Source: Octopus vulgaris
Taxonomy: Eukaryota
Length of the DNA: 64,000 nt
Assembly (NCBI GenBank): GCA_951406725.2
Contig: OX597815.1
Coordinates: 41,168,001-41,232,000, forward strand
Direction: 5' to 3'
The notes under the pieces are model-generated. The model did not search any database. It was given only the letters and a program-made list of their open reading frames with translations, and was not told the DNA's origin. The stretch's first letter is position 1, and the number at the start of each line of letters is the position of its first letter. The position numbers and the translations under genes are program-made. Below are positions 11,226-61,039 of the stretch, piece after piece.

Positions 11226-12072
11226 TATTTATATATAAAAGAAAGGTTGTGTGTCTGTCTACTCCGATTTAGATTCCTAACTACTCCCACATTTTGCGAT
11301 GCAGTTTAACCAAAACCGGGTATCTTATAGTCGTGATTCATATCGAGCCCTTCTGGGTATTAGCGCGCGTCTACGATGAGTCTATGATTTTACAAATAAT
11401 TTACCATAATTTTTTTCCATTTTAATGCATATTTTTAAAAATAAACGGAAGTAACTCTCAAACTTCACACCAATATGCGTGCTCATATGCGACGTAATAT
11501 CACATCAGCAGCATTTCCTCACACCCTCCTTGCACTTGGCGAAGGCAAAATACCAGGGGATGAAAATGGTAATATTGCCATCGATTCCATTTGTACCATT
11601 GTTAAGACGCCTTCTGATCTCAGAGATGCAGTGTTCCCAGATCTACAAGCTAATTATCAGAATATGGATTGGATTGGCAAAAAGGCTATACTGGCCCCGA
11701 GGAATAAAACTGTTCACCATATTAATGATGAAATGCTAAAACTTATTCCTGGGGAAGTCTATGTATATCAGTCTATCGATACAACTCCTGACCCAGAGGA
11801 CGTCATCAACTATCCAATAGAGGTACTCAATTCCTTTGAGCACCCCGGACTACCACCACACTTTCTCAAACTTAAAGTTGGTGCCCCTATAATGCTCATC
11901 AGAAATTTGGTTCCCCCAAAACAATGCAATGGCACACGTTTGATCGCTAAGTCCTTATCTCCCACCGTAAGCTTATATCAATATTTGCCTGAATAATCAT
12001 CATAATTCAGTGCAATCATTAACAGTACTTTCAAGCAATTCAGCCCCGAGCAACGCCGGGCAATTCTGCTAG
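11226..12072 (+). mobile_element. Helitron derivative carrying a PIF1-type helicase fragment (ORF 11475-11996)
   Basis: AILAPRN, YPIEVLNS, GLPPHFLKLKVGAPIMLIRNL and CNGTRL motifs of the Helitron RepHel helicase; 3' hairpin plus CTAG at 12069-12072; 5' part shared with the 5583 and 13566 copies. Confidence 0.9.
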
Positions 12073-15647: not shown

Positions 15648-16874
15648 CGAGGGTACTCCCAAAAGTAAGGTCTCCAAAAATATTTATTTAAAAATCACAG
15701 AAACGTATATTGTCAATGATGGGGAGAATTCACAAAAAAAAACTAAACAAAAGACAGGTGGTGTAGACAACAAACAGATATATTAGTTTATCGCTCGGGA
15801 AGTGAAAAAGTCTTTAACGTTTCGAGCCTACGCTCTTTCACAGAAAGGAACACAGAAAGAAACAAGGAGAGAAGATTAATCCCTGTTCACAGTGCAAACG
15901 GGAGTCCGGAAGGCCCCTGTGCAAGGACAATCCGAACACAAACAGGTGTTGCAAAGAGTGACCGGTAGAGCAGAAATGGCGCGAGACCGGGGTGTCATTG
16001 CCGTGTCGGATGTCTCGGAGGTGTTCCGCGAACCAATCAGCCAAACGGCGTCCCATTTGCCCGATGTATAGAGAAGAGCAGAGAGAGCAGGAGATGCAGT
16101 AGATGAAATTGGTAGAAGTGTAGGTGAAGGAGTCGGTGATGTGATAGGGTCGATAATGGGCGCCGGTGATTGAGGAAGCATTGAACTTCATCTCTCACCT
16201 CGTCGTCGTTGCTGAAGCGCATTCCGGCCAAATGTTCTTTCAACTTAGGGAACAGGTGTTAGTCACTGGGTTCCAAGTCCGGACTATAAGGTGGGTGGGT
16301 GATGATGTCCCATTTATGGCCTTCGTTGCTGTTTATGGTTTTCTGTGAGCATTCGCGGGAACCATCTTGCGCACACCCTCCGATATTGCAACCTTTCACA
16401 CAAAACCCTATGAATGGTGTTTCAGGAAACCCCAGGAACCAAAATACGGAGATCATCGAGCGTGATTTCCATGCAGGATTTACTCAACCATCGCGACTGT
16501 CTCGTCGGAAATTGATGTTTGCCTACTTCTTTCTTCATCATGAATTTCAGTACGACCAGCTGCAAACTCCCTACACCACTTGTGGACGTTTTTGACAACC
16601 ATGCACGACTCGCCATTCACATCTGTCAACTGGTGATGAATTTCAATCGGTTTAATGCCTTTTGCGTTCAAAAACCAAATAACTGTGCGAACTTCACACT
16701 TGGTGGTAGTGTCAATCAGGATCTCCATCAGATACAACTGCCAAGCCAAAACTGAGCATGACAGCGAAGCGTGCAGGCGCATGCACAACAAACACAACAG
16801 TGCTGTCAATAGCTGCACGCACAGTTTCCCTGCATCCCCGGCACTTTGGAGACCTTATTTTGGGGATTACCCTC

Positions 16875-17999: not shown

Positions 18000-19260
18000 G
18001 CCGTTCTCTGTGTTTTCCGACTATGCCGAGAATACGCAGCTTGTGGCATATACCATGGTCAACTTTATCAAAGGCTTTTGCAAGTCGAGATATATCACGT
18101 CTACATTTGAGTTGTTGAGCAGCTGCTTTAACACCCAGGCGTAGTGCTGCAAGAGCTGTGTCAGGCAGCTTCTACCCGATCGAAAACTATGCTGGGTGTT
18201 AGTCATTAAGTCATTCTCTTCAAGGAATGCAATTAGTTTCCTTTAGACTATGCGTTCCATAACTTTGCTGATATGCGTTGTCAGAGAGACCTGCTCTACT
18301 TCCTCCTTTATGAATAGGGCAGATTATTCCCGCTTTCAGTTTTCCCAGGAGCTTACAATTTGCAAGAAAGATCTGAAAAGAAGCTGCAGTGGTTTTGCAA
18401 GTGCTCGTTTGCATGACATGAAAAATATTGCTGGGAATCCATCGAGGCCAGCAGCTGAGTTTGTGTTTACGTCATCTATTACCAGTATTACATTCTTTTC
18501 TTTGATGTTGATGTAGTCAACTGTTACTGCTTCCCTTTCTACATGTGTAGTGGTAAGGAATTCTATATGTTTGCTGACTTGCATGTGCCGTAAGGGTGGA
18601 GTAAGAAAAGTTTTGAATTATTCATTCAATGTTTCACTAGGTTTCCTGTGAGGAAACCATCTTTTTGAAGGAGTGGCCCTACATTGCAGCGCACAGATGA
18701 AGTTTCTTTGGCATACATAAAGAAGGCCTTAGGGGTTGATTTTATATTTTTTATAACTCGGGCTTCTTTGTCTGCTCTTTCTTTTTCATGGGAGCATTTC
18801 AAATGTTTCCCAATATCCAGCAGTGCTGTTTCCAGGCGGAAATTTTCGCTGCCATTGAGTTCTTTATTGAGGTGGTTTGCAATCTTTGTACGCCTTCTCG
18901 TAAGAACTTTCCTCTCCTTGGACATCTTGTTCTTATGTAGAGTGGCTTTTCCCTCTGGGACAACTTGTAACACATGACTTGCATTACGGATATGGATTTT
19001 TTGAATTTCATATCAATGTCATGTATAGAGAGATATTGGGCCATTCCTGTTCGATGATCTCCTCAATTGATTTCCAATCTGCTTTATGGAAATTCAGTTT
19101 GGATAGATTCTGGGTGCTTCATATAGCCTGTATGTTTGCAGGTTCTTTTGGTCCATACATGGTCAGCTCATTTATATTCTGATCCGAGACTAGCGTCGGT
19201 CTCACTTTCACATATGAATGAGATCCATATTGTTTGTGAAGCAGAGATCAAGAATATTGT
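18000..19260 (-). mobile_element. CR1-clade LINE ORF2 fragment, degraded
   Basis: QHSFRSGRSCLTQLL..VDVIYLD, SAAGLDGFPAIF, IICPIHKGGSR, KNIKSTPKAFFMYAK. Confidence 0.85.
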
Positions 19261-19348
19261 TTGCCCTGGCTGGTTGGTTGGTTGATTGGTTGGAGTATTA
19301 CTTGCTCCATATATAACTTGTTGGTGAGGTTGAGCAGCAGTTTCATCT

Positions 19349-19496
19349 GGAGTGGCTGTGTGGTAAGTAGCTTGTTTACCAACCACATGGTTCCGGGTTC
19401 AGTCCCACTGCGTGGCATCTTGGGCAAGTGTCTTCTGCTATAGCCTCGGGCCGACCAAAGCCTTGTGAGTGGACGGAAACTGGAAGAAGCCTGTCG

Positions 19497-19528
<32 letters not shown>

Positions 19529-19757
19529 AGTGTGTGTATATGTTTGTGTGCCTGTGTTTGTCCCCCTAGCATTGCTTGACAACCGATGCTGGTGTGTTTA
19601 TGTCCCCGTCACTTAGCGGTTCGGCAAAAGAGACCGATAGAATAAGTACTGGGCTTACAAAAGAATAAGTCGCGGGATCGAGTTGCTCGATTAAAGGCGG
19701 TGCTCCAGCATGGCCGCAGTCAAAATGACTGAAACAAATAAAAGAGTAAAAGAGAGT
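19349..19757 (+). mobile_element. CORE-type SINE
   Basis: Same family as 2558-2940. Confidence 0.9.
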
Positions 19758-20149
19758 ATTGTGTCATTCCTGAGGGAAAAAAAAGACTTTCAGGCCACCC
19801 TACGTTGGGTAGATTGAAACCTCCCATTAGAAGTACACTGATGTGTTGTTCTAATTTGGTTAAGACTCCTATTCATACAAGACAGTCTTCGAATAATCCC
19901 GTATAATTTCGAGCATCTGGTGGACGATAAGTAGTACATATAACTATATCAAATTGTCTTATATGTACATTTAGTGTGTGAAACACCGAGTTTGTTATTA
20001 ACAAAAGGATCTGGAATATGAAATCTTAGATGTACATTGCAACTCCACCCTGGCTCCTGTTTTTTAATTTCGCTTCGTATTACAACATACTTTGGTACGT
20101 GTATGTATGTATGTATGTATGTATGTATGTATGTATGTATGTATGTATG

Positions 20150-20215
<66 letters not shown>

Positions 20216-20509
20216 TGTGTGTGTGTGTGTGTGTGTGCATGCGTGCGCGTGTGTGTATTTACAAATGCTATTAGAGCAGTATTTTAAAAATAAAAGACTG
20301 TAATATACATTTAACTATATGTATGTATGTGAGTGAAACTGTTGAAGTAAACATGATTTACGATAAAAATTTGCACAACGATTTCAAAGCAAAACCTGTC
20401 ACTAATATTCACCTGCTTTTAGTGTCTCTGACAGTCACACACAACCACTCTGTTTATTGTTTTAATTTTCTTTCACCACTGACAGAACACTGCGTTTTAT
20501 ACATATGCA

Positions 20510-21002
20510 AGGCTGGCCCTTGTGAATTACAGGTGGCGGTGTATATTTCGTTTGTCACTGTTATTTATGATAACCCTAAAACCTCAACCCTAACCCTAAC
20601 CTTTACCCTAAAACCCCAACCCTAAAACCCTAACCCTAAACCTAAAACCCTAACCCTAACCCCAAACCCTAACTCAAACCCTAAAACCTGAAAGCTAAAA
20701 CCAGTACAAACGCACGAACGATGTCATAAATAACAGTGACAAACGAAAAATACACCGCCGATAGCTGTTGTTGACAAACAACAAGCAGTAATTTTATTCA
20801 GCTGAATACACGTCATTGATTGGTTGAAATTACCGAAATAGGACTACTTTGACGTGAAATTACTTCGTAAGTATCAGTTTTTCTCAAAAGCGCTAAGAGC
20901 AAAAGCTGTTTTATACGACACATTGTACCAGTGTCCGAAGTTTGAAAGTGTTTAGTTACAAAAAATTATTTTTTAAGTCTGTCGGTCAAAAGGTAAAGAT
21001 CC
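20510..21002. mobile_element. DNA-transposon derivative with an internal degenerate (CCCTAA)n array (20572-20700)
   Basis: Ends CAAAAGGTAAAGATCC like the 1802 MITE family; internal inverted repeats flank the telomere-like array. Confidence 0.6.
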
Positions 21003-21330
21003 AAAGGTTGTATTTAACAGATTCAATGAAGTCACTCGGAGGTGGGGCCGAACGGCTTCATTTCATTTATCATTTTATCAAATTAATCCTTTCCATCCGT
21101 CTTTTTTCTGTCTCCACCATGTATTGTCCACTCCGTATTAGGCCTTGTGTAACTAATAAAATAATTAATATTTCCCTCATACTAACACTCTTTGCACCCT
21201 TCTCATTTCATCAAGTAAAATCTTTGTAGAGCTAGTTGAGGGAGGAGGAGGGTATAGTAGCTATAGCAGACTGACATGTACTGATAGACTAAAACGTCAG
21301 TCTTATCAAATCAATTTTATTAATGTGTGT

Positions 21331-21383
<53 letters not shown>

Positions 21384-21896
21384 CATGTGTTTATCTGTGT
21401 GTGTATGTGTGTATATGTATGGGCATCTATGCATGTGTGTATGTGTGTGAATATGTGTATGTATGTGTCGGTGTGTATCTGTGTGCGTGTACATATGCAC
21501 GTATGCAGGTACGTGAGTATGTTTGTGTGTATGTATATAAGTGTGTGTATGTATATAAGTGTGTGTATGTGTGTGTGTGTATATGTGGATGTGTGTGTAT
21601 ATATATGTGTATCTGTGTGTGTTTGTGTGCATGGATACATGTGTGTTTGTGTGTGTGTGCGTATGCATCGGCGCATTTATGATTGTGTCGGGAATTCCCC
21701 GTAATCAAAAATAGCCCATTTTCCCAGAAATTCTTATGCTCTGACCTATTTCCACGTATTAAAGAGTTAAAGCGCAAATCGCTATCTCATGTGTATGTAG
21801 TGTGTGTGTGTGTATGTGCGTGTGCTCGCGTGTTTGTGTGCATGCGTATGTGTGATTGTATGTATATATATATATATATATATTTATTTATTTTAT

Positions 21897-22000
21897 AGGA
21901 GCTTCTACAGGACTAGAACTGTTTCATTCAAATGAAATCATCAGGAAGCTTCCTGATGATTTCATTTGAATGAAACAGTTCTAGTCCTGTAGAAGCTCCT
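21897..22000. repeat. 104-bp perfect palindrome with CTGATGA...GAAAC hammerhead-like cores
   Basis: Exact inverted arms centred on AAGCTT (21946-21951). Confidence 0.85.
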
Positions 22001-22080
22001 TCTATAAAATAAATTAATTTACTCTGCCTATGTATTGAGTACCTTATTTACTGTGGTTAACCCCGACTCAACCCGGGACC

Positions 22081-22143
<63 letters not shown>

Positions 22144-22147
22144 TATA

Positions 22148-22630
22148 TCTATATATATATATAAGGCAGTTTGTCTATGTGTCTGTCAGGTTGTACCCTC
22201 ACCCTGACCACGGCTTTCAACTGATTCTGATGAAACTTGACACACACATAGCCCAATGTCATAATTCAAAACTAACGCAACGAAAATTTTGAAAAGTTCC
22301 CCCAGTTCTGAAAAAAAATCGATAAATTCGACATGGGGTCGAGAATCCAAGCTTATCATATGCAACACATTTTCCGTTGTAGTTTTCGCAACTTGCAATC
22401 GATTTTCACCAAACTCATGGTGAAGCTTAATGTTACCCTAAGGAACTTAATTCTGACGTTAGTTTTCCATGCAATACCTTACCATCAGAAAAAATCGATA
22501 AAATCATGCCATTTTGGGAAATCGCGTTCAAATTCAAGATGACATATTTTCGCCAATATTTTTAACAAATTGGCAGGAATATTTTTTTGAAATTCACAGC
22601 GAGCATCATGTCTGCTCCAAGGAGCTATAT
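22148..22630 (+). mobile_element. Helitron family 2 copy, 5' part
   Basis: Highly similar to the reverse complement of 28380-28862; starts TCTATATAT..AAGGCAG. Confidence 0.75.
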
Positions 22631-23409
22631 GGCCCTTTTGATTCCAATAGGATACGTTATTACTGGAAAAATCGGTTAATTACATCATATGTGGCACACA
22701 TAGCAAACCGATTTTTCTGCGATATTTTAAAAACTGGGTTGGGTGTGCTAAACAAAACCAGAAAATGCACTTTGACTGTCATAGATTTTCTTCATGCATG
22801 CAAGGGAACGGTGCCTTGAATGCCTTAATGCCTTTTAGGCTTCATTTTACAAAATAACGGTTCAATGAGTACAAAAAAGGGTAAAAAAGTAAAGGGCATT
22901 GCATATAGGCCTATATGCTAGTCCTTGGCTTTCTGCTGAAGAGGCAACGCCAGTCGAAAATAAATTAATTTTATTTACAAAAGATTGCCGAAACTATGCA
23001 TAGTCCAGAAAGGATAGGGTAAACGTTTTTATTTCTCTTTCCATTTCAGAATTACAACTATTAGTGGTTTGGAGTTTAACTGCTCTTTCTAGTGAGTCGG
23101 ATGTCCTATTATGGCCATCCCTTATATGTTTGAATGTATATATATATATATATATATGTACACTTATATATACATTTATCTGTCTGTCTAGCTATCTATA
23201 CACATACACACACACACATGTATGGGTATATATGCGTATGTCTATATGTCGTATGAGGCTACATGTATATAATATGTATGTATATATACGTATACATATA
23301 TGTGTGTGTGTATTAAAAATGGGAATGACTGGTTTATGGGATTACATAAGTTTTCCCGTCCAGATCTTCAAAACTCTTAGGTCCATGACTTCTTAAAAAT
23401 TTGGAAGGG

Positions 23410-24600
23410 GGAAATGCCTCACTACTCATACATCAGCGCTGTTGAATGCTCCCATCGCTACGTCAGAGGAGCCGGGAGGTCGGATTGCTTGACCCATGCC
23501 GAACTTTCGTTGAACAGCACCGTCTTTCTGGCATGCATAATGACTTCTATATCTCTGTCGCTAATGTTAGTGAAGCTTCTAGTGAAAGAAAGTGCCTTGG
23601 CCAGCAGTCCTTTTGATATAGATGGGTAAAAGTCGACTATATCAAACTAGGTGAATCTTGCTTTGCTGCCTCATCCCTTGTTGGTGTTAAACGATGCGGT
23701 CACTTTGTTGGTGTTGCACCACAAGGAAAGGATGGTGGCCCTCCTTATGTCGTTATTGATATCTGTAACGATAAAAATTTGCTGTTATAATTGCATACTG
23801 TAGGATGTGAAAGATGAACAATGCATGAAGTTTTAAGGAAATATTTATTTACCGTTACGTTACAATACCTTGCCTTGACGGGCAGGTTATGATAAATCCA
23901 AAAGCATGCAAAGTAAAGTTTGTGTTTGTGTCCTCTTCATTGTTTAGTAGTGATTACAGAGAGAGAGATAGAATGATGTTGTAAGAGAACAGAATTGGAG
24001 CTAGTGAGAGTTGTAGGGTGTGGGACGTTGTCTCACAGTTGCTGACAGTAAACTTCACTTCTCCCTCTGACCAAGGTTCTAACTGGTCAGCTAGACTTCA
24101 TTGTCACCGACTGATTTTTGCTTGGGGTGTTCTTGCTTTTATAACTATCCAGAAGGATAGTCATATCATTGAGAACAATAGACTTAGTTGGTGATCTTGT
24201 TATCTCTATTCTGGTTTTTGGTGAAGTAGAAGAGGTTAGAAAGGGTCAAGTAGTAAAGACGTTATTTTGGCTTAGCTAAAGGCATCTGGAAAATGTAAAA
24301 CTGCTGTCACAGAAAAAATCATTGTTCCACTGTGGGAAAAGTTCTGTTGAAGTGTTTAAATTTGGCTATGGATCGAATCCACTTCATGCTTGCAAGATCC
24401 ACTACATACCCCTCAAAATGTGCTTGCTTGCCGGACCGTTCTCCAATTTGGCCGGATTGATCAGGCGGCATTTAGGGTTTGAGGCAAAGTTCGGTTTATG
24501 ATATTTTATGGTAATGAAGGTGTTTCTTTTAGCTAGGATCTATACCCTGTCCGCTATCTCTAATTCGTTAGCTAATCTTTTGGCTTCACTGTTGATATTG
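23410..24600 (-). mobile_element. Penelope-like reverse transcriptase pseudogene fragment, interrupted by a solo LTR
   Basis: Manual translation: [31 protein letters not shown] | INNDIRR..FDIVDFYPSISKGLLAKAL..DVAMGAFNSADV. Confidence 0.8.
23764..24406 (-). mobile_element. Solo LTR (643 bp)
   Basis: TG...CA termini; imperfect 4-bp TSD TATC/TACC; TATAAAA and AATAAA on the minus strand; second copy at 1-313. Confidence 0.8.
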
Positions 24601-24842
24601 TTATATGTGTGTGGGGAAGCGCGCCTATAATTTTGGTGTATAAATTGGCATTTTCCTCTTTCAGCTTCTGCATTCTTGAAAATTTTGCTGAAACATCCAG
24701 GCATCCCTGATTCCATTGATTTGTACCTTTGGTCGTCAGTTTTAACCTCCTGTCACTCGGAGGCCATTCTCTCTGAGCAGCAAGCTGGAATAGGTATTTT
24801 TCTTTCCAATCTTGACAGCAACTAAACATATATAACATCGCT

Positions 24843-24904
24843 TAGCAGAGCGTAGTTCCGATCTACGAACCTCTGGGTTATGGGCCCAGCACGCTTCCAC
24901 TGCG
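24843..24904 (-). pseudogene. 5'-truncated initiator tRNA-Met(CAT) pseudogene
   Basis: CGCAGTGGAAGCGTGCTGGGCCCATAACCCAGAGGTTCGTAGATCGGAACTACGCTCTGCTA matches metazoan tRNAiMet from position ~11; first 10 nt absent; T-loop A58 replaced by G. Confidence 0.85.
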
Positions 24905-25149
24905 AACATTTTTATAACAAATCGTACCATGCCTATTGAGGAGGCCAAACGGCAGTAATGTGTTGAAGTATTGAATCAAAAGGATCTAACTCTTTTAATC
25001 CAATCCCTTGTCGCCACATAAACTCAATTTTTAGTGGCAATCTTTTTATTGTGAGTGAGATAACCAAAAAGTACGAACTATCAAACTTGCAAGTTGCAGC
25101 TATGGTTTTATTTTGTACTATATGTACTGCTAATATTAATACGGACTTG

Positions 25150-25355
25150 GGCGGCAAGCTGGCAGAATCGTTATCACGTCGGATAAAATGTTTAGCGTCC
25201 TTTAGTCCGTCTTTACGTTCTGAATTCAAATTTCACCGAGGCCAACTTTCCTATTTATCCTTTCGGGGTCGATAAAATAAGTACAAGTTGTGTACCGAGA
25301 TCGATGTAATCGACTTACCCCGAACTTGCAGGCCTTGTGCCAAAGTTTGAAAGCA
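25150..25355 (+). mobile_element. Nin/Deu-like SINE
   Basis: Homologous to 3260-3420; other copies at ~27880-28075, 31355-31540, 31818-32022, 55690-55900, 62815-63235. Confidence 0.75.
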
Positions 25356-25753
25356 ATACTAATACGACTGCTGACAAAAATGATAATTTACAAATGCACT
25401 GACGGCGATGTATTGTCAGTCTGTGGATATTCTTGTTGTATTCGTTTTATGCTCGAATCCTACAGTCATTCACTGCTATTCATTTTTCTAAATAGGTATT
25501 GAGTTCCGGATAGTTGAATATATTCCCGTCTCTGCTCATTTGTCTAAGTTACAAATAATTGTCTTTATTATTGAGCTTCACAGAATCGGTTGAATAGCAC
25601 ACAAAATACTTCAAAATCAAGTCCTGTTTACATAATCTTAAGAATCACTGGATTTGTAGGACTGAAGCGGAAAGTTTTAATGCAAGGGAAATAACTGTAT
25701 TGAATTATCTCCCTTGAGTTATAAATTTCTGAACTTCAGAAAATGTAATAAAA

Positions 25754-25784
<31 letters not shown>

Positions 25785-28338
25785 CGGGTGTGTGCATGTG
25801 TGTGCTTGCATGCGTGCATGCGTGCGTGCGTGCAGTTGTCCCTTGGTCTGCACAATAGATTGTCCTCAAGACTACGTACAAATCGAAATCATGTAAAACG
25901 AATTCGCTAATCAGTGATTTTATATTCAGTGCTCAGGTGTACTACAACTTATTGCAGCCATACAGAAGAAGGGACAGAAAGCAACTATACGTCAAATATC
26001 AAATAAAGATAGCAATGATAACCACAAGTGCATGCACAGTATATCACTCATACATACGCGTTGCTCATATATACACGAACATACTGCAAGCTCCATGCAC
26101 AAACCACGTTCTTAAGAACAATGGGATTATAGAGTAAACCCTCTCTTCATTGTTTTCGGGTAGAATATGACCTTCACAGTTTTAAAACAGGGTGACAAAT
26201 TTTGGAGGCTTCCTTCATTTCAATATTTTCATCTCTTCTTTTGTCACCGTCTCATTTTATTTCCTTTTATCAACTCCTTTATTGTAACTTCAGTTACCTT
26301 ATTTTATTGTCAGTTATTCTTTTATTAGCTTTTTTTTTTATTACCATCTCATTGCATACCGTTTAAATCATTTAGCAATTATTTTATTACCGTCTTTTAT
26401 CTGCTAAATTAAATTTATTTTTATTTTTTATTTATTTATTTATTTATTTATCTAGTTTCAGCTCACAAGATGTGGCCATGCTGGGGCACCGCCATTTGGT
26501 GTTGCTACATGATTTTACTTCACGAATGCTTTTAAGCAATTGCCATTTGGTAAAGTTTTTGTGACATTAACACCATTCTCTTCCCCACTTTATTGTTTAT
26601 CTAGAAGTGGCCTACAGATATTGCTTCGGGTGATTTCCTGTAAAGAAACGCATAGAAACAAACATCCTGCCTCATATGCACCACACCTACAAGCGTTCAT
26701 ATTTATAGGAAAAATATGATTATGCACTGTCCATGCATTAATTATCTATCAGTCTGTCTGTCAATCAGTCAGAATATGCGACTAATAGAGCGAGGGAGAA
26801 ATTTGTGTGGTTATGGTCACGCGAGCTGTTAGAAATAGCAACTAAATCTCAATCAACTCAAACCCTACCATCTTAAACAAAGTAATAAAACATTGGATAA
26901 TAGAGAGCTAGACTCTTCTAAACAGATGGAATGGTCATATCAGGAAGACTTTCTCAAACATGGCTTATCTGATGTCATACGACAAAATTACATTGAACAA
27001 TAATGCTTATTGTTGTGTTCGTTTTTTGTTGTTGCTCAGACCGCAATTCGATTCTGATCACCCCTTCTTTTATTCTGATGCATCCCAGACTACGCTTTAA
27101 TTATTAGAAGACTGTACTTATATATTATTATATTTTGTTTGAATCTCACTAGAACCAACCTCTCCCATCACCCCCTCCAGTGTTGATAAGATAAACGCCA
27201 GTTATATGGTGTGATTCAAATGACAACACTGCACAAACCAATGTATCTTCCCCTTTTTTTTAATCTGAAGACAGTAGGATGTGATACGAGAGACTTGGCC
27301 ATCATTTCCAGCAGGCAGATGAACCCTAAAGAAGTTCCAACAGTTGTTGGGTTCTAACGTGACAACTAAAATTATTCATTGCTAAATGACCGTCAAATAT
27401 TAAGAATCTAGCATCGCTGGACCAGGTTCATCAAAATTATATTTTCAGAAATCAAATTAAGTATTTTGTTGGATCAAATTAGATTTTATTGAGTTTTGAA
27501 TAAATCTTGAAATTAACTGTTGATGATTAGCATTTCAACAAGATTCCTGAACTGCCTTCCCCTCTCTCATCAATCTAGAGGCCCTGTAAAAGGTAATTGG
27601 AGTTGCCTCTTCACTTCTGTTTAACCCTTAAAAATAACAAATGAGGGCCATACGTTTGTAGAGAAAGGACAGAGGCGACTGAATTAACCAAGGTGTATAT
27701 AATCCCACATGCCACTGTTTCTGCCACTTCAAGGCCTTACCTTGATTAAATCACTCCAAGACCTTGACTGATATTTGTTTTATCGGCCCAGGAAGAACAA
27801 AAGGTAAAGTCGACCTCGATGAGAATTTCAATTTAGGACATAACGGACCTGTTTAAAATAATTGTTTCTGATGTAGATACAAGGTCAACAATTTGGGAGA
27901 TAGTAGAGGGTATTAGTCGATCAAATCTACTCCAGTTCTTGACTGGCACCTTACCTATCCCGGAGGGATGAAAGACAAAGTTGAACTCAGCAGGATTCAA
28001 ACCCAGAACGTTAAGGGCTGTAACAAATACCGCAAGGCATCTTGTCCGGCACTCTACTGGTTCTCCCATTCACTGCTCTCTTCCCTTCTTTATCTGTTGA
28101 AAGTTCGTATTTAATTTAAGCAAAGTAAATAAATAGACGAAACACAGTAATTTTTTTCATGGTTTCTGAATAACTTTATTTCGTATTTTACTAAATTATT
28201 TGTAATTTAAATTGATGTTGCTTCTGCTTATTTCTGCTGCTGCTGTTGTTAATGTTGTCCTTGTTAATATTATTGCTGCTGCTGCTGCTGATGTTGTTGT
28301 TGTTGTTTAAGTTGTAATTTCTACAGTTGTAGTTAAAA

Positions 28339-28862
28339 CTAGCAGTATAGCCCGGCATTGCCCGGGTATGTAAGAACCCCTGGAGCAGACATGATGCTCG
28401 CTGTGAATTAAAAAAAAAATTCCTGCCAATTTGTGAAAGATATTGTCGAAAATGTGTCATCTTGAATTTGAACGCGATTTCCCAAAATTGCATGATTTTA
28501 TCGATTTTTTCTGACGGTAAGGTATTGCATGGAAAACTAACGTCAGAATTAAGTTTCTTGGGGTAACATTAAGCTTCACCATGAGTTTGGTGAAAATCGA
28601 TTGCAAGTTGCGAAAACTACAACAGAAAATGTGTTGCAAATAAAAAGTTTAGATTCTCGACCCCATGTCGAATTTATCAATTTTTTTCAGAACTGGGGGA
28701 ACTTTTCAAAGTTTTCGTTGCGTTAGTTTTGAATTATGACATTGGGCTATGTGTGTGTCAAGTTTCATCAGAATCGGTTGAAAGCCGTGGTCAGGGTGAG
28801 GGTACAACCTGACAGACACACAGACACACAGACAGACAAACTGCCGTTTATATAGAGAGAGA
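28339..28862 (-). mobile_element. Non-autonomous Helitron inserted at the 3' end of a coding exon
   Basis: Minus strand A^TCTCTCTCTATATAAACGGCAG ... CCCGGGCAATGCCGGG hairpin, CTAG^T; no TSD; paralog at 22148. Confidence 0.85.
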
Positions 28863-29249
28863 TGCGTCAGAAACTGAAGGACCGCTATCTTCTTCTGATG
28901 AAGAAGGGAAAATCTTACTTCCGAACGATGGCACACGTCCATTGCTTCGACGGTAACCATAATATGTATTCTTCTTCTGTAGCTGAGACGATGAATCAAA
29001 CTGGTTGTCCAAATTGGAAGCCGATGGATAGTTTATATATCCATTTGCCATACTCCTTTCTCGTAGGATGTTTAATAAGATATTAGCCAGAACATCTTTC
29101 GATGCTCTGGTTGTGTCTCGCTCTGTGCGAGGAACTGCAATAGATTGTGGTCGGTTGATCTGTTCGGGCTTCAACTCCGATGCAAGGCAGTAAAATACTA
29201 GCATTGAGGACGTTATCGAAAGTAGTGTTAATACCGTAATTCTAGGCAT
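28848..29249 (-). CDS. Secreted neuropeptide/prohormone-like precursor, 133 aa, single coding exon
   Basis: Polypyrimidine tract plus TTTCAG acceptor (exon starts 29266), ATG 17 nt later; hydrophobic signal-peptide-like N-terminus MPRITVLTLLSITSSMLVFYCLA; dibasic KK and RR; non-repetitive open frame; AATAAA at ~28175 downstream. Confidence 0.75.
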   Translation of the reverse strand: MPRITVLTLLSITSSMLVFYCLASELKPEQINRPQSIAVPRTERDTTRASKDVLANILLNILRERSMANGYINYPSASNLDNQFDSSSQLQKKNTYYGYRRSNGRVPSFGSKIFPSSSEEDSGPSVSDASLSI

Positions 29250-29736
29250 GATCACAAACGGTGGATCTGAAATATTGGAGAAGAAAAAAGAAGCATTATA
29301 AAAGACCTGTGATTGCATTAGGGGAAAATATACATATTCAAATCTACGTTGAGCATCACTGCAAAATCATCAAAATAGAGTTGAGCAGTTACTAAACCTC
29401 CGAATTTTATACGGATTCCCAAAGGCCATATGGACGACGGTTGAGAACCACTGTTTTAGGCCGCAAACATTGGGACGTCAAGTCCGACAATAATGTTCTG
29501 TTCGATATTATAGCAGCGTCGACAATGTATATCCACCTTCATCATGATTCAAAAAATGATGATGATGATGATGATTATGATGAAATTGGCGGAATATAAA
29601 CACACATAATCACTACCTGCCTGCCTACCTACCTACCTACCTACCTACCTACTTACCTATATACATACATGCTTAATACATACATACATACATGCATACA
29701 TACACATATACACACATACATACATACATACATACA

Positions 29737-29769
<33 letters not shown>

Positions 29770-30253
29770 GCATACAAAAATACCCTGTTGATGTTGATAT
29801 TCTAATGAAGGAGCTTTGGATATGGGTTAGAAACCGGCTCTTTCTCTATTGGCAAGAAATCTTGAAATAAAACTGAATAATGACACACACACACACAAAT
29901 AACCGATGTTGCAGTCACATTTGTCATAAAGAAAAGTCTGTTTTCTCAGAACTACTAAGACAAGAACATCCACGCCCAGTTACATAACATAGGAAAATAC
30001 ATGAAGATAGAAAATAAAATCTTTCATCTCTCAAACATTAATGTAATCGTCAATGAAAAGACACAAATGAATAAAAGGTTAAGAGAGAAAATACAGAAAT
30101 ATAACTTTAGAAAACCAAATATCCAGCTTAAATCAAAGAACGACTAAGATAAGAGATATTCTTTAAATGGTAAAGAATTTATGATGAAAAGTAACAATCA
30201 ATATAGTACCGGTTCCAGCACTAAGACAAGTAGAAAAAATTGGGAGGTAGGGA

Positions 30254-30417
30254 CACTAGCGTAGCTAGGTAGGGATGGTAGGGGTGGTCCTCCTCGATAG
30301 GCACTTTTAATGGGGCACTACATTTGAGTCTGCTGTAGGAAATGCATTTTTTGTGGGATCCGGGGGCGGCAAACGGAAGGGCCGCCCCGGGCGGCACACA
30401 CTGTAGCTACGCTAGTG
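30254..30417. mobile_element. hAT-type MITE
   Basis: TIR CACTAGCGTAGCT/AGCTACGCTAGTG; 8-bp TSD GGTAGGGA/GGCAGGGA. Confidence 0.8.
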
Positions 30418-30465
30418 GGCAGGGATTACCATTAATGAGAATGTTTAAAAGAACAAATGTAGCGC

Positions 30466-30710
30466 TTGAACAATGTTGGGCAGGAGCTGCACACCTTTGA
30501 ACTAATCCGACGTGAGAACCTTGAGGAAGAGAGACGTCAACGTCATCTCAGACTCACCAACAAAATAATGGGCAACTTCCCTTGTCATTTGTGTTCAAGG
30601 ACATGCCATTGCAGGACCGGACTGTTTTCCTATCTATCATCTTACAAAATGTAAGATAAGACTCCTAGAGGAGAACGTCGTCGTCAACTTTGACGGACGG
30701 CTGTAAGCAA
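30466..30710 (+). mobile_element. RTE LINE 3' end fragment with C2H2-like finger
   Basis: FPCHLCSRTCHCRTGLFSYL, typical of RTE C-termini. Confidence 0.6.
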
Positions 30711-30986
30711 TAACAACTCAGGAAGGAGTTCAGATGCTACAAACACTGAACAACTGGAAAACACCTTAAAGAATTCAGAAATTTTGGTGGAAATATCTAA
30801 TAGATAGAGAGAAGGTATTAACAAACATATTTAGTAATTTACTGAGAGAACCAGAAACAATGTGGCAGAATCATCATAATCTGCAAGACCAAAGAAACAG
30901 CAAACTCCCAAAAGAAGAAACCTATTATTGGCTTGCAAGCAATATAGAATCTTAGCTGTAATATAATATTGCAGAAGGAGAAGGTG

Positions 30987-31046
<60 letters not shown>

Positions 31047-31262
31047 GCACGCACGCACAAACACATCACGTATGTATTATGTATGTATATGCATGTATGT
31101 GTTTATGTATGTATTATGTGTGTGTGATTATTCAGTTTTATTTAAAGATTTCTAGCCAAGAGAGAGAGAGAGATATATATAGAGAGAGATAGAGAGACGG
31201 TTTCTAACCTACATCAAAGACTCCTTCATTGAAATTTAACATTAACTGGGTATGTATGTATG

Positions 31263-31296
<34 letters not shown>

Positions 31297-32540
31297 TGTA
31301 TGTATTTATGTATGTATGTATGTACGTATGTATGTGTATATGTATATATACACCAGGAAAAAACGCTTAACGGCATTTTGTCCATCTTTACGCTCTGAGT
31401 TCAAATTCCGCCGAGGTCGACTTTGCCTTTCAACCTTTAGGAGTCAATAAAATATGTACCAATTGAGTACTGGAGCCGATATAATCGACTTAGCCCCTCC
31501 CCCAAAATTACTGGCCTTGTGTCAAAAACTGAAACCAATATTGCAGAGGGAGAAAAAACGAAAAATCTCCTCTCGCTTTCAGAAGAACGGTATGGTGTGA
31601 TTTAGATGCAAAACAATTGCATCGTGGCCCTTTAAAACACATATATATATATACTGTAACACTCAAGTTTTGTTTTCGTATAGAATTGTATAATACTATA
31701 AAATACCTAAACATTTTGTCTCTCGTTTACGACCAGGTCACTGACGTTAGTCTACTGCATCTCCAAAGACCAATTCTTCCACAAAATTTATCGACAAATT
31801 GAAGTATATAAATATTCCTTTCTACGATAGGCACAAGGCCTGAAATTGGGAGGGTGTCGATTACATCGACTCCTGTGCTTAACTGGTACTTATTTTATCG
31901 ACCACGATAGGATGAAAGGTAAAGGTGATCTCAGCGGAATTTGAACCCAGAATGTAAAGACGGATGGAATGTCGCTAAGTATTTTGTCCGGAGCACTAAC
32001 GACTCAGCCAGCTCGTCGCCTTATCAAAGTATATAGATATTATCATAAAGGATAAGTAAATATAGCAGTACCTCTGTTTCACCACCAATTGTATGCAAAG
32101 GGTTTACATCTGAAATTAGCGCTTCAGCTTTGAAGAGTAGAAATCTTATTTAGCCAAGTTACTAACATAACAACAGACAAAGACTTGTATTTGGCTATCG
32201 ACGAAATAAAATGTACGAAGTATATTGATCATCAATATTCGATTGCTGTTTATCTAAATAAAGCTAAATCATCAGCATTGCACTCCTTCATTGCAGTTGG
32301 CGAATAGTTGATGAGTTTGAACATGTCTATGAACCTGAATTAAAAAGAAAAAAAGAATTGATTTAAGTAATAATGTACGGATGTACTGCATTTGTTTTCC
32401 AATATCGGCAAGGTCGTAGTCGTGTAGGAGGACATGACGCACGGCAACCCAGGTCTCTAATAGAACTGCTCCGACTTTTGTTTCTCATTTTTTTTTCTCT
32501 CCCTGTTTCATGTTGGTTCAACCCTCCAAATAACTTTAAT

Positions 32541-33076
32541 GTGAAATCCAATATTGCCAAAAATTTGCTTAACCCGATCCAGAAAATTTTCCATAGTACA
32601 CAATATTCCAGTCTTTTAACTGGTAAAATTTCAAGGCTAGCTATAGTTGCATAATAAAGAAGGGGAACATTATCTCAGGAACTATGCGCTCCAAATCACC
32701 TAATAGGCATCCCAAACCACGGAATAAATTAAAAAACTCGGTAACTAATTCTGTAGGAAGTGCTTTGAATAATCTCGCCAACCTTGGGGGACAGTTGAGA
32801 CTGTCAAAGTGAAATCCAATATTGCCAAAAATTTGCTTAACCCGATCCAGAAAATTTTCCATAGTACACAATATTCCAGTCTTTTAACTGGTAAAATTTC
32901 AAGGCTAGATATAGTTGCATAATAAAGAAGGGGAACATTATCTCAGGAACTATGCGCTCCAAATCACCTAATAGGCATCCCAAACCACGGAATAAATTAA
33001 AAAACTCCGTAACTAATTCTGTAGGAAGTGCTTTGAATAATCTCGCCAACCTTGGGGGACAGTTGAGACTGTCAAA
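32541..33076. repeat. 268-bp tandem duplication of unique sequence
   Basis: Copies 32541-32808 and 32809-33076, about 2 mismatches seen. Confidence 0.95.
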
Positions 33077-33759
33077 ATAAAGAGTTGTGTCTCCTCGGGA
33101 ATTTGGGCTAAGCTGATTCTATGATTTATCGAGCTACGGTGTTAGTCACTGGAGACATACAACACCGTAGATCAAGTATCGAAATGTTTGGAGGTAGCTT
33201 TAGTGAGTAGTTCATCTGTAAGTTTACATTAAAATATGCAGACAAGAGAAACAATGCATTTCGAAGCCATAAAAACTACTTGAAGGATTACAATAGTGAC
33301 AACTTTTATATCAGCTGGTCTGCATCACACTTCAGCAACAAGTATATACTGGCGCATAGAACACAATTCCTTCGCATCAAAACAACAGACGCTGACGCTA
33401 CCACCGTTGTGTCCTTGAGCAAAACAATTCATTTCACGTTGTTCTAGTCTACTCAGCTGAAAATGAGCATCACTTGAGTGCTCTTTCTCCCTCCAGCTGT
33501 CATATCCTGGCTGCATCGCTGGATTAAAGGGATAGTCGAGAGGGTTTCTGTGTCTGCTCCCGACTACATAGTCACCTAAAGCAATTAGCGAAAACATCGT
33601 AAAGTTAGCTAGCCATACTCATTCGCAGGTGACGGCGGGCTAAAAAAAATGTATGTATGTATGTATGTATGTATGTGTGTATGCATGTATGCATGCATTA
33701 TTTATGCATGCATGTATACATTTACCCTTTAAATAAGTGCATATCACTTCATACGCTTG

Positions 33760-34020
33760 TTTTCTATAAGTGGTCACATGATCTGGTCACGCGAGGGGTT
33801 ATACATTGATCTAGCCCTTCTAGCTTTACGCTGGCTCTCATCCCATCACATGATAGACCAACCGAGCGCTATTCGCGGGAACCCACCGTCGGCTACATAA
33901 AGAGAAATGTTCTCGCTATTTCTTCAGTGAGGTAGGTTAGCGAGGTCGACTTCGGATCTCGGCAGAGAGAAAGTTTGTTTCGTAGGCAGTCTCAGGTAGC
34001 CTTCAACGCGTACCTCTGTT
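33760..34020 (+). promoter_or_regulatory. CpG-rich putative promoter / first exon
   Basis: Non-repetitive CpG cluster; TCACATGA E-boxes at ~33774 and ~33846; donor-like GAG|GTAGGT at ~33931; CpG depletion begins downstream. Strand is a guess. Confidence 0.4.
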
Positions 34021-35279
34021 TCTTCATCCAGCAGAAGCCATGTCATGTATTTGTTTTCATTTTCTACATCGCATACATCACCATGCACCAACTGCATGAG
34101 AAACCTTATGTATATTTTCTGACAGTATCTTTCAAGATGTATTCCATTAACTTTGCTTTTTAATAGGTTGAATAAAGCATCGCTTCTAATCCTCCTGGTT
34201 TTCTGTTTCTTCCTTTATCTACATACACACGTATACTGGAACACAAACCAGCTTTTTCTATATACACCAGCTTTATCTATTAACTCACGTATACGATATA
34301 AACCAGCTTTATCTATATATATACACGTATACTGGAACACAACCGTGAAATATACATGTAAGCATGTCATTGAATGTAGCGGATCTGTATGTTTTGGCTT
34401 ATATGTATGTCTACAAGTACAAACGTTATTATGTCTGTATATGTGTGTGTATCTTCACCAGGCCACCCTAGAAATATTTTACATATTTTCACAATTCCAT
34501 CATTAGTTTGTAATTGTAATTTCTTAACTAGCGGTGTCCCGCCGGCCTTGGAAGACCATCTACCCCAATAACCGCAGGTATAAATCTGAAGTTATAGTCC
34601 AGTTTCTCGTTTATCCGACACAAATGCTTTCTTTTCCTTTTTATTTTATCATTTATGTTAATGCTAGTTGAACAACCGATCCTACTACTGCGCACGCTTT
34701 CTTTTCTCTGTCCCAGATAATTAGCCCTGCTTTGCTGAGTGTACGTTTATTTACGGAAGTTTTGACAGGAACATTTTACTAGTTTCTTTTTTATTATAAA
34801 TGTGGCTGCCTTCCACATTACTGCATTCTCATTATATTTTTTATGTTCAGGATTTACCAAGCAACGAATTGCATTGTATAGTGATTTTTGCCTCTCAAAA
34901 GTAGATAGCGTCATGATTAACATTTTACGGAGAGTAGCTTATGATGTTGGCTTCACTTTTAGCACTAATTTGACAGACTGGATTGGTTTTCACATTTTAG
35001 TGCCCTATCCTTTGTGTGAATCAGGTATTTTCTTGTTATTTCTTGTTCTTGGATTGCAAAAGCATATCCTTCGAGGTGACCGCTGATATACTGGTTATTG
35101 ATCCAAGGTAGACTACTCTGGTTATTCATGTTTACTCTTTGAAGCTTTCTAACAATTCGTGCATGACTTGCTGAAAAGGCGATAAACAATTCATTTGATG
35201 TTCTTTTGCTGTAAAAATGCGCAGCTTTTCGTGGGTTTGTATTCTTGGTAATCAGACAGGAAATACTTAGTGTGAATGA

Positions 35280-52377: not shown

Positions 52378-53353
52378 TATCTTTTTCTCTTTCATATTCC
52401 CTTTCTCTCACACCTTCCACCCTTGCTTATCCTTACTACATGGGATAGCCCTAACCGGCTCTATGCAACCTGCCTTCTGCTCTGTCCCTTCCTTTCTCAC
52501 TAACTATTAACACCAATCCTTTTCTTTACTCTGTTCCTTCCATTCCATACTCCCTCCGCCAAAGTATTTACTGTTATTCCCCACTATCACCCTCTCACAA
52601 CTTTAAATCTGTTCCCCTCATCATATTTCAGCCCTCTCTCACCTTGCTTAAAATCATCATCATCATCATTACACACATACACTTTCTCCCTCTTCCCTTC
52701 TCTCTCTCTCCTATTCTCCTTTGCAAGTTGCAAGGCAACCTCAGTAGTGCTGGCGCCATAGAAAAGCTCTCAGTACACTCTGTAAAATGATTTGAAGAGA
52801 ACACTGGAACACATCATGTCTCTGTGATTCATCAGATCCTGTTGTACTCATTTAACCCATGTAAGCTTGGAGATCAGACATTAAATGATGATGATGATGA
52901 TGATATAATGGGTTGGTTCATAAATAACAACCAATTTTTTTTAATTCTAAATTTTAAATAAAACTTGTAAATTAAATTATAAAACACTCGTTAATTATGC
53001 ACCATCCCAATATATGTCATCATCATCAACATCATCATTTAATGTCTGCTTTCCATGCTGGCATGGATTGGACAATTTGACTGAGGACTGGCAAACCAGG
53101 AGGTTGCACCAGGCTCCAATCTGATCTGGCAAGGTTTCTACAGCTGGATGCCCTTCCTAACACCACCATTCCAAGAGTGTAGTGGGTGCTCTTTACGTGT
53201 CACCAGGATGGGAGCCAGTCAGGTGGCACTGGCATCAACCATGCTCAAATGGTGCTTTTTACATGCCACCAGTACAGGAGCCCTCAATATAAAACTGAGG
53301 TGGTATTCCCACTGCCGGCCTTGCCCATCTTGTGGATCAGCATGAGTGCCGGT

Positions 53354-54021
53354 TGTCACGTTCGCGCATGCGCACTTACACATTCGCGCATGCGCACTTA
53401 CACGTTCGCGCATGCGCACTTACACGTTCGCGCATGCGCACGCACACGTTCAAGCATGCGCACGCACAAATACGCGCATGCGCACTTACACGTTCGTGCA
53501 TGCGCAAGCAAACGTTCACGCATGCGCACGCACACGTTCGCGCATGCGCACGCACAACTACGCGCATGCGCACTTACACGTTCGCGCATGCGCACGCACA
53601 AGTACGCGCATGCGCACTTACACGTTCGCGCATGCGCACTTGCACGTTCGCGCATACGCACGCACACCTACGCGCATGCGCAAGCAAACGTTCACGCATG
53701 CGCACGCACAAGTACGCGCATGCGCACGCACAAGTACGCGCATGCGCACTTACACGTTCGCGCACGCACAAGTACGCGCGAGCGCCCTTACACGTTCGCG
53801 CATGCTCACGCACACGTTCGCGCATGCGTACTTACACGCACAAGTTCGCGCATGCGCACCTACACGTTCGCGCATGCGCACCTACACGTTCGCGCATGCG
53901 CACGCACACGTTCGCGCATGTGCACTTACACGTTCGCGCTTGCGCAAGCTCACGTTCGCGCATGCGCAAGCAAACGTTCACGCATGCGCACATACACGTT
54001 CGCGCATGCGCACGCACACGT
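53354..54021. repeat. CpG-rich ~22-26 bp minisatellite, unit about CACGTTCGCGCATGCGCACTTA
   Basis: Direct reading; explains the AHAH/RMRT ORFs. Confidence 0.95.
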
Positions 54022-54136
54022 AAATATAACAATATAACAAAGAATTTAGTAAAATAACTTAGTTATCATTAAGCTAGTGTTAGAAACATAAATTGTGACT
54101 AAGGTTTGGTGGAAGATTTTAATTCAAAACTTATAA

Positions 54137-60300: not shown

Positions 60301-61039
60301 CTATGCTGAGGGATACATTCTTCACCCGGGAGGGTCTTTGTATTTAAGAGCGACCCTGCATCCCGCTGTCTGGTGAGGATGAAGTCTATTTGGCTAGCGG
60401 AGTCTCCTGACTGATAGGTTATAAGGTGGCAGTCAGGCTTCCTGAAGTTAGTATTGCAGATTAAAAGGTTACATGCATCACAGAATTCCAGTAGTCTAGT
60501 TCCCTCATCATTTCTGGTGCCAATACCATGGCCACCATGTACCCCAGTGAAGATACCTGATTCCCGCCCAACATGCCCATTAAAGTCTCCACCCACAAAG
60601 ATGAGGTCCTTGCCACTAGTCTTTGAGGTAGCCTGTAGAAGGGTATCATAAAAGTGGTCCTTCTGATCATTTGGTAGTCCCGCTTGTGGGGCATAGGCGG
60701 AGATAATCGTAGCTGTGCAACTCTGTAGGACTAACCTGAGCTTAAGCACTCTATCGCAAACCCTGACAACCTCTATGACCTTATCCACCCATTTCTCCGC
60801 AAGGAGAATGCCTACACCATCCATGTTACCTTGCCAGAAGACTTTATACTTATGTGCCTTGCCTGTGAGGACCCTAGCTGAAGCACCTCTCCATCTTACC
60901 TCTTGTATGCAGCAACCCGTCTTCTCTCAAGCATCTCTACAATCTCACTAGACCTACCTTTCAATGTACCAACATTGACAGTGCCAACTCTGAAAACTGG
61001 GAAGGAGATGTAGGGAGGAGGGGAGCAATTCAGCACCTG

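Follow-up and report, generated by a model that had tools for sequence, protein, structure and literature searches.

Does the open reading frame (ORF) P0001, found in the middle of a 64,000-nucleotide window of the Octopus vulgaris genome (GCA_951406725.2, contig OX597815.1, positions 41,168,001 to 41,232,000), belong to a working neuropeptide gene, and to which peptide family could such a gene be assigned? In a preliminary description, made from the letters of the window, the ORF was taken for a candidate neuropeptide precursor that lacks the C-terminal amidation glycine, could be assigned to no family and loosely resembles NKY-type precursors. Here we report that P0001 represents the coding exon of a gene duplicated only in part and in inverted orientation, the copy being devoid of exon 1 and promoter and having its 3' end replaced, and that the intact parent gene is spliced and expressed. 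On the whole, the window ORF is likely a dead partial duplicate, and its parent likely encodes an NKY-like neuropeptide.

The origin of the ORF was traced by a six-frame tblastn search of the octopus's own genome (2.8 Gb), which returned exactly one other copy (C2:158003050-158003427, 98% identity over residues 1-126), located on the same chromosome, 117 Mb away and in the opposite orientation. A third match (C2:106125778, E 3.28) has a stop inside and was dismissed as chance. Comparison by BLAST of 94 kb around the window with 90 kb around the parent copy delimited a collinear inverted block (Table 1), which contains the coding exon, about 6 kb of the parent intron upstream of it and about 10 kb downstream, while exon 1 remains outside. 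Because intron sequence was duplicated along with the exon, the window copy was not retroposed. In the parent gene (C2:157967xxx-158003442), a non-coding exon 1 is separated by a 35.7-kb intron from a single exon that holds the entire coding sequence (CDS) of 130 codons. With up to 2 mismatches allowed, a 30-mer of exon 1, taken from the contig continuation of sequencing run X4, has a single match in the genome (C2:157967328-157967357); with up to 3 allowed, it has none in the window. A non-repetitive stretch of 241 bp from the promoter/exon-1 region is single-copy as well. Since this sequence is single-copy and lies beyond the duplicated block, the window copy is without the parent promoter and exon 1. 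In gene sense exon 1 ends with ...TTAAACCCAAG/GTAAGA, a consensus donor (AAG/GTAAGA, the slash marking the boundary) that precedes the parent exon by 35.7 kb; according to the contig of run X2, exon 1 has a length of at least 182 nt. A perfect palindromic octamer resembling the cAMP-response element, TGACGTCA, is present 33 bp upstream of a TTATAA box (C2:157966972-157967017). The two elements, about 345-390 bp upstream of the exon-1 donor, are a plausible core promoter of the parent.

The two copies part company at the end of the reading frame. Homology to the parent breaks off after the first base of codon 127, and a 528-bp segment of the window takes the place of 60 parental base pairs. These encode F-R-Y-G (codons 127-130, beginning with the second base of codon 127) and the stop, and extend into the 3' untranslated region (UTR). 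The tail of the window ORF, SDASLSI with its stop, is thus read from the replacement, and the loss of the parental FRYG-stop to this repeat-bearing segment explains why the amidation glycine is missing. Its absence was noted correctly for the window copy, but it does not extend to the parent and two relatives, all of which end with VFRYG-stop; likewise, the impression that no family is assignable was an artefact of the damaged tail, for the intact parent ends FRY-Gly-stop as NKY precursors do. The ORF had also been described as non-repetitive, which does not hold, as it has a 98% identical twin elsewhere and owes its last 7 codons and stop to a replacement with a high-copy repeat. The summed depth of this interspersed repeat of about 450 bp, a measure that is not a copy number, amounts to thousands of times the exon depth in all four runs described below. 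A second copy of the repeat was seen at 22169-22619 (95% identity, opposite orientation), and both copies lie in window-specific insertions of the duplicated block.

Evidence on expression comes from assembled contigs of four runs (X1, X2, X4 and X15), of which X1, X2 and X4 are small and stem from three studies. In each of these three, one contig covers 28871-29268 and its match to the window ends there; past 29268 the contig extends by 72 letters in X4 and by 182 letters in the X2 record. As the X4 continuation matches exon 1 beside its GT donor, the acceptor at 29268-29267 is demonstrably used in the parent copy. Position 28871 is joined straight to 28342, skipping the 528 bp, in 4/4 runs. 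The copies differ at 4 of 379 shared coding bases, and rooting by the O. bimaculoides protein P0002 assigns two of the changes to the window copy, at 29134 (A39V) and 29000 (L84F); both are non-synonymous and no synonymous one accompanies them. The parental G is found at 29000 and 29134 in every contig of all four runs, and the window's A in none. The parental bases, the junction with exon 1 and the omission of the 528 bp together identify the observed transcripts as parent-type; the intact parent is spliced and expressed. The check suggested earlier for the window ORF, spliced transcripts at 29266, therefore turned out positive for the other copy: contigs do break at 29268 and run on into exon 1, but in the parent.

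A second copy of this kind might be explained as an assembly artefact, that is a misplaced haplotig or false duplication. The large run X15, which reads through the intron, would agree with it, as a single contig of parent type spans 28871-29549 there, although this is no proof that the duplicate is missing from that animal. An artefact is nevertheless extremely improbable: the copies differ by about 4.9% substitutions over 12.8 kb and, in addition, by the replacement of 528 bp, an insertion of 1.8 kb and a tandem duplication of 268 bp, and they are inverted, 117 Mb apart and surrounded by otherwise unrelated sequence, which is more than two haplotypes of one locus would show. The 268-bp unit is present in two tandem copies (99% identity) at window positions 32541-33076 and once in the parent block; since the BLAST pieces of the parent overlap there by about 257 bp and the unit is single, the tandem copy is younger than the segmental duplication.

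The window copy is probably a pseudogene. It lacks the parent promoter and exon 1, the end of its frame is disrupted and only parent-type contigs were found in the four runs, from which we infer that it is silent. Several observations weigh against this or limit the evidence on expression. The shared CDS has diverged by 4/379 (1.06%) as compared with 631/12842 (4.9%) for the block, about 4.6 times less (Fisher p 8e-5), which possibly reflects past constraint or gene conversion, local rate variation being possible too; acceptor and ATG are intact in the window copy; the RNA label of the runs is a guess, with the exon-exon junction in X4 showing spliced cDNA; and contigs can miss a rare transcript, just as the sequenced animals may not carry the duplicate. 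The divergence is graded, however, with only 1.7-2.7% in the pieces adjoining the exon, and constraint on the parent only would already halve the divergence of the exon, so the low value is compatible with a dead copy. The alternative, a recently formed and functional paralogue in the window that would be transcribed from a new upstream exon or promoter and produce a non-amidated prohormone ending ...SVSDASLSI, draws on the same facts, namely the unbroken ORF, ATG and acceptor, the CDS divergence below the block average and the circumstance that missing window-type contigs do not prove silence. We regard it as very unlikely, as parent promoter and exon 1 are single-copy and beyond the duplicated block, all contigs carry the parental bases at 29000 and 29134, both lineage-specific CDS changes are non-synonymous with zero synonymous ones, and the conserved FRY-Gly end, which defines the family, was lost to the repeat-bearing replacement. 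In terms of annotation, the window ORF should be flagged as a partial duplicate and not as a gene, and its tail would mislead motif-based peptide prediction.

What the preliminary description had read from the ORF itself can now be transferred, for the most part, to the gene family. On the minus strand the frame runs from the ATG at 29249 to the TAA at 28850-28848, and the predicted splice acceptor ahead of the ATG is present and intact (...ttttcttctccaatatttcag/ATCCACC, with 17 bases between acceptor and ATG). The hydrophobic N-terminus was borne out (mean Kyte-Doolittle value of 2.0 over residues 4-18, followed by a (-3,-1) site, CLA/SEL, after A23), and so were the dibasic sites, one KK (92-93) and one RR (100-101). 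The proposed amphipathic segment was not: KDVLANILLNILRER has a helical hydrophobic moment of 0.28, a value equalled or exceeded in 1152 of 2000 shuffles. The picture of a neuropeptide-like gene with signal peptide, basic site, single coding exon and 5'-UTR intron fits the gene family, whereas the locus in the window is a promoterless partial duplicate without exon 1.

The translation of the parent is, letter for letter, CAI9718432.1, a protein of 130 aa from O. vulgaris annotated as hypothetical (predicted), and an 'uncharacterized protein' of O. bimaculoides (P0002) shares 97% identity with it. The gene may therefore be called uncharacterised inasmuch as it bears only such labels, but the parent is already in public databases for both species; the window's own 133-aa sequence is absent from all protein collections searched. 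Searching of the ORF against Pfam gave ExbD as the sole match (E 0.17, under the cut-off). With phmmer, three proteins were found among 1.84 billion representatives at E <=0.001: the octopus cluster, P0004 and P0005. P0004 (122 aa, 44% identity to the parent, E 1.6e-18, on 30 short contigs) keeps the signal peptide with a CxA/S site, the Leu-rich helix, QL(K)KK, (N/D)T(Y/W)Y.YR, RVP(S/A)FGS and the terminal VFRYG-stop. The only basic pair common to both proteins is KK92-93 of octopus, corresponding to KKK83-85 of P0004, while RR100-101 is not conserved. The third protein, P0005, is a 1278-aa frame through a tandem repeat on a 21.3-kb contig, with at least 15 units (17 BLASTP stretches) resembling propeptide residues 39-68 (APRT...DALASVLLGSLR) at 10-13 of 30 positions; its kinship with the parent is doubtful, and the HMMER E-value (2.5e-18) is inflated by the repeats. 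Word-based protein searches yielded one cluster among 17 candidates for P0001 and only itself among 20 for P0004. Four peptide strings of the ORF protein gave no paper in a full-text literature search, which covers supplements incompletely, and NTYYGY, RVPSFG and RVPAFG have 0 occurrences in the searchable supplement text of PMC6425005, where two files are partial, so that absence of the gene is not concluded.

Amidation is classically signalled by a C-terminal glycine that immediately precedes the stop codon. Such a glycine, together with the KK site, predicts a product of 36 residues ending -SVFRY-NH2, and the length is the same in both proteins (residues 94-129 followed by Gly130-stop in the parent, 86-121 followed by Gly-stop in P0004). 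The parent product would accordingly be a secreted prohormone, from which the signal peptide would be removed after Ala23; cleavage would follow at the conserved Lys92-Lys93 with subsequent trimming of the basic residues, and Gly130 would be used to amidate Tyr129, giving a peptide with the end -Ser-Val-Phe-Arg-Tyr-NH2. Such a peptide may act on a G protein-coupled receptor of the sNPF/NKY/NPY group that recognises RYamides. Were the window copy to yield a product, it would be without the amidation end, Tyr-Gly, by which the active terminus is defined. Two softer lines are in accord with the predicted peptide of the parent. The AlphaFold2 model (3 sequences; mean pLDDT 56.7, pTM 0.20, hence of low confidence and used for secondary structure only) has helices at residues 2-25 and 43-70 and disorder at 87-130. 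Among the Atlas feature neighbours, 8 of the 10 rows shown are peptide-hormone precursors (scores 0.87-0.91), including DH31, NPFF, urotensin-2B, CCK, PDH, osteocrin and tachykinin-3, with fewer than 170 features shared and no single family standing out.

NKY precursors, as depicted in the accessible parts of the literature, combine a signal peptide and a propeptide with a Lys-containing basic site; their one peptide, about 34-43 residues long, is placed at the precursor end or close to it and finishes with (V/L/I)(F/L/M)RY-Gly (PMC6425005; PMC4200219; Zhang et al. 2018, PMC5996578). Two subgroups are distinguished by the motifs FW[RQ]P[LM]G[YG] (NKY-1) and G[YF]WIWMPAQG (NKY-2), both with octopus members, Ocbimv22003823 and Ocbimv22002636, respectively (De Oliveira et al. 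2019, PMC6425005, accessible text). The parent has a predicted signal peptide, the conserved Lys site and a 36-residue C-terminal peptide ending Tyr-Gly, an end that the window copy does not possess; the whole CDS is in one exon in the parent, in NKY-1 and in both NKY-2 genes of this genome. Profile alignment by hhalign of the three parent-family sequences with four cephalopod NKY-1 paired residues 79-130 with 65-118 at a score of 27.8 (E 3.8e-4), which was reached by 0/200 column shuffles (maximum 19.7). For scale, the accepted pair of octopus NKY-1 and NKY-2 reaches only 14.2 (E 0.098), less than the parent family against NKY-1; for the parent family against NKY-2 the score is 17.2 (E 0.031), over 24 columns only. 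Moreover, RVPSFGSKIFPS of the parent and RLASFGSRLVPS of a monoplacophoran NKY-1-type peptide are, by eye, identical at 7 of 12 positions, and the two stretches are collinear, each lying after the KK site and ahead of the RYG end.

The case for NKY has its counterweights. The core motifs of NKY-1 and NKY-2 are absent: at this place the parent has NTYYGYRRSNG and P0004 has DTWYRYRGIDS, with only the aromatic character and a Gly kept. After removal of the VFRYG columns from both profiles the hhalign score falls to 10.1 (E 0.51), which means that the sequence evidence for kinship rests on one pentapeptide, and VFRYG occurs also in octopus LFRFamide/sNPF precursors. BLASTP against NKY-1 aligns 9 residues only (E 0.014), and the phmmer search of 1.84 billion representatives brought up no named NKY. 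The loose likeness to NKY-type precursors noted early on is the best lead found, though the core motifs are lacking and the likeness depends on VFRYG. Weighing both sides, we lean slightly towards reading the parent as the precursor of an amidated, NKY-like neuropeptide that would form a third, divergent type beside NKY-1 and NKY-2. As the core motif, one of the defining features, is missing, we file the parent as built like and working like NKY and do not call it a proven member.

The main rival is a venom-gland or other secretory role: the parent would then be a cephalopod-restricted secreted peptide, for instance a salivary-gland venom mimic of the RYamide neuropeptides of prey, and its VFRY-Gly end would be convergent. 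Such a role would accord with the disappearance of the NKY-1 similarity along with VFRYG, with the absent core motifs and with the narrow set of matches, octopus sequences plus one 44% relative (P0004); a 2026 preprint, in its accessible part, describes many short cephalopod-only secreted families of venom glands with function unknown, as well as neuropeptide-mimicking toxins. On the other hand, the architecture is collinear with that of NKY precursors, including the single coding exon and the 36-residue C-terminal peptide, RVPSFGSKIFPS resembles the monoplacophoran stretch by eye, parent and NKY-1 are linked on one chromosome, and no NKY or FRYamide mimic is reported in that same part of the preprint. 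We consider the secretory alternative unlikely and retain the NKY-like precursor as the preferred reading of the parent.

Coordinates of the features discussed are collected in Table 1.

Table 1. Features of the window that bear on the duplicated exon (window positions; C2, positions of the parent copy)
Feature	Position	Strand	Remarks
ORF P0001	28848..29249	minus	133 codons + TAA; codons 1-126 homologous to parent, codons 127-133 (SDASLSI) + stop foreign
Shared part of parent exon	28871..29266	minus	17 nt of 5'UTR + codons 1-126; 4 substitutions vs parent CDS
Polypyrimidine tract + AG acceptor	29267..29290	minus	AG at 29268-29267; exon from 29266; intact in window copy
Replacement segment, 528 bp	28343..28870		stands in place of 60 parental bp, C2:158003429-158003488
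Interspersed repeat, ~450 bp	28381..28829		inside replacement; contig loose ends at 28381
Inverted collinear duplicate	18971..35276 (~16 kb)		corresponds to C2:158011321-157996295; 88-97% identity per BLAST piece
Window-specific insertion, 1.8 kb	21655..23465		within duplicated block; contains second copy of ~450-bp repeat

The remaining part of the window consists of microsatellites and the remains of transposons. Fifteen other long frames were compared with Pfam, of which 10 gave no match and 5 carried transposon domains (1 Pif1, 1 mariner helix-turn-helix and 3 of the endonuclease/reverse transcriptase of long interspersed nuclear elements, LINE). Just beyond the duplicated block there are a Helitron-like fragment of the Pif1 helicase 2B domain at 11445-11996 (+) (E 2.8e-14) and a mariner-type helix-turn-helix fragment at 16480-16854 (-) (E 2.4e-4, under the cut-off). 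The LINE-like element at 57973-60926 (-) is split over several frames, with endonuclease and reverse transcriptase domains in three frames between 58566 and 60926, a PHD/C1-type zinc finger behind the reverse transcriptase and a fourth frame (57973-58656) without match. According to the ORF list, many further long frames are microsatellite read-through, and at 53183-54057 (+) three overlapping frames of 225-284 codons pass through a degenerate tandem repeat (HAHAHLHVRACA...-like units). An Rfam search over 24000-46000 returned 44 weak matches, none near the gathering score, which were mostly microsatellite look-alikes of microRNA models.

Carrying the reading of the parent one step further, we tentatively suggest, at somewhat less than even confidence, that it represents a third octopus NKY-type gene, 'NKY-3'. 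Its FRYamide peptide would have lost the FWxPxG core and kept an ancient RVPSFGS mid-motif, as in monoplacophoran and chiton NKY; the gene would have arisen by an old local duplication beside NKY-1 and would still be undergoing copying, as the window duplicate and the doubled NKY-2 would indicate. NKY peptides occur across molluscs, annelids and nemerteans, and their physiological (native) receptor is debated, as far as the accessible literature goes. If the suggestion is true, NKY-3 would be a natural extra ligand for settling which receptor these peptides use, and a paralogue that keeps only both peptide ends shows which parts are dispensable. With the parent, at present only a 'hypothetical protein', the peptide repertoire of cephalopods seems to gain a long and divergent RYamide. 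The advance consists in the extension of a family and a pseudogene, with no new signalling principle.

Compared with named systems, the parent is reminiscent of the NPY/NPF peptides in its length of 36 residues and its C-terminal RYamide. Membership in this family was rejected, because the end is SVFRY and not RxR(F/Y), the peptide does not follow immediately upon the signal peptide but closes the precursor, and the CDS is uninterrupted, whereas in NPY/NPF genes the Arg codon of the RF/RYamide end contains an intron described as conserved (Stewart et al. 2014, PMC4200219, accessible text). The octopus LFRFamide/sNPF precursor (Ocbimv22002924) shares the VFRYamide end, as it includes VFRYG besides other xFR(F/Y)G units, but these are many short copies (5-7 residues) flanked by basic sites, in contrast to the single 36-residue C-terminal peptide of the parent. 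With one FRYG at the very end, and KK and RR as the only basic pairs, the parent was not accepted as a member of this family either.

The likeness to NKY-2 concerns the architecture with its single coding exon and, by eye, a similar spacing where the peptide begins, aromatic-aromatic-x-aromatic ... G-x-V-(x-x-)P; the NKY-2 peptide ends with (I/V)LRY-Gly-stop. Unlike NKY-2, which is on another chromosome, the parent is without WIWMP(S/A)(H/Q)GY. In this genome NKY-2 is present as two intact tandem copies of 112 codons (P0011, C5:24266016-24266354, and P0012, C5:24370547-24370885), 104.5 kb apart in the same orientation and differing in a few residues, and the published O. bimaculoides set has one. 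Octopus NKY-1 was, like NKY-2, recovered by a motif pattern (P0006, C2:153324274-153324630) on the chromosome of the parent, 4.6 Mb from it. Both have a signal peptide, a Leu-rich helical propeptide, a Lys basic site (KRK in NKY-1, KK/KKK in the parent and P0004) and one long C-terminal peptide (38 residues in NKY-1, 36 in the parent) ending VFRY-Gly-stop, and in both a 5'-UTR intron precedes a single coding exon that holds the entire CDS. They differ in that the parent has NTYYGYRRSNGRVPSFG in place of the AFWRPMGYLP core, and no similarity is detectable between them with VFRYG masked. As for the NKY-1-type peptides of monoplacophorans and chitons in the accessible supplement of PMC6425005, which were compared by eye only, they keep FW(R/K)P(L/F)G, unlike the parent. 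With the parent they have in common the KK, the aromatic-rich start, the (L/F)RYG end and the mid-motif R(L/V)x(S/A)(F/M)G(S/R)(R/K)(L/I/M)xP, the 7/12 identity given above being to Laevipilina.

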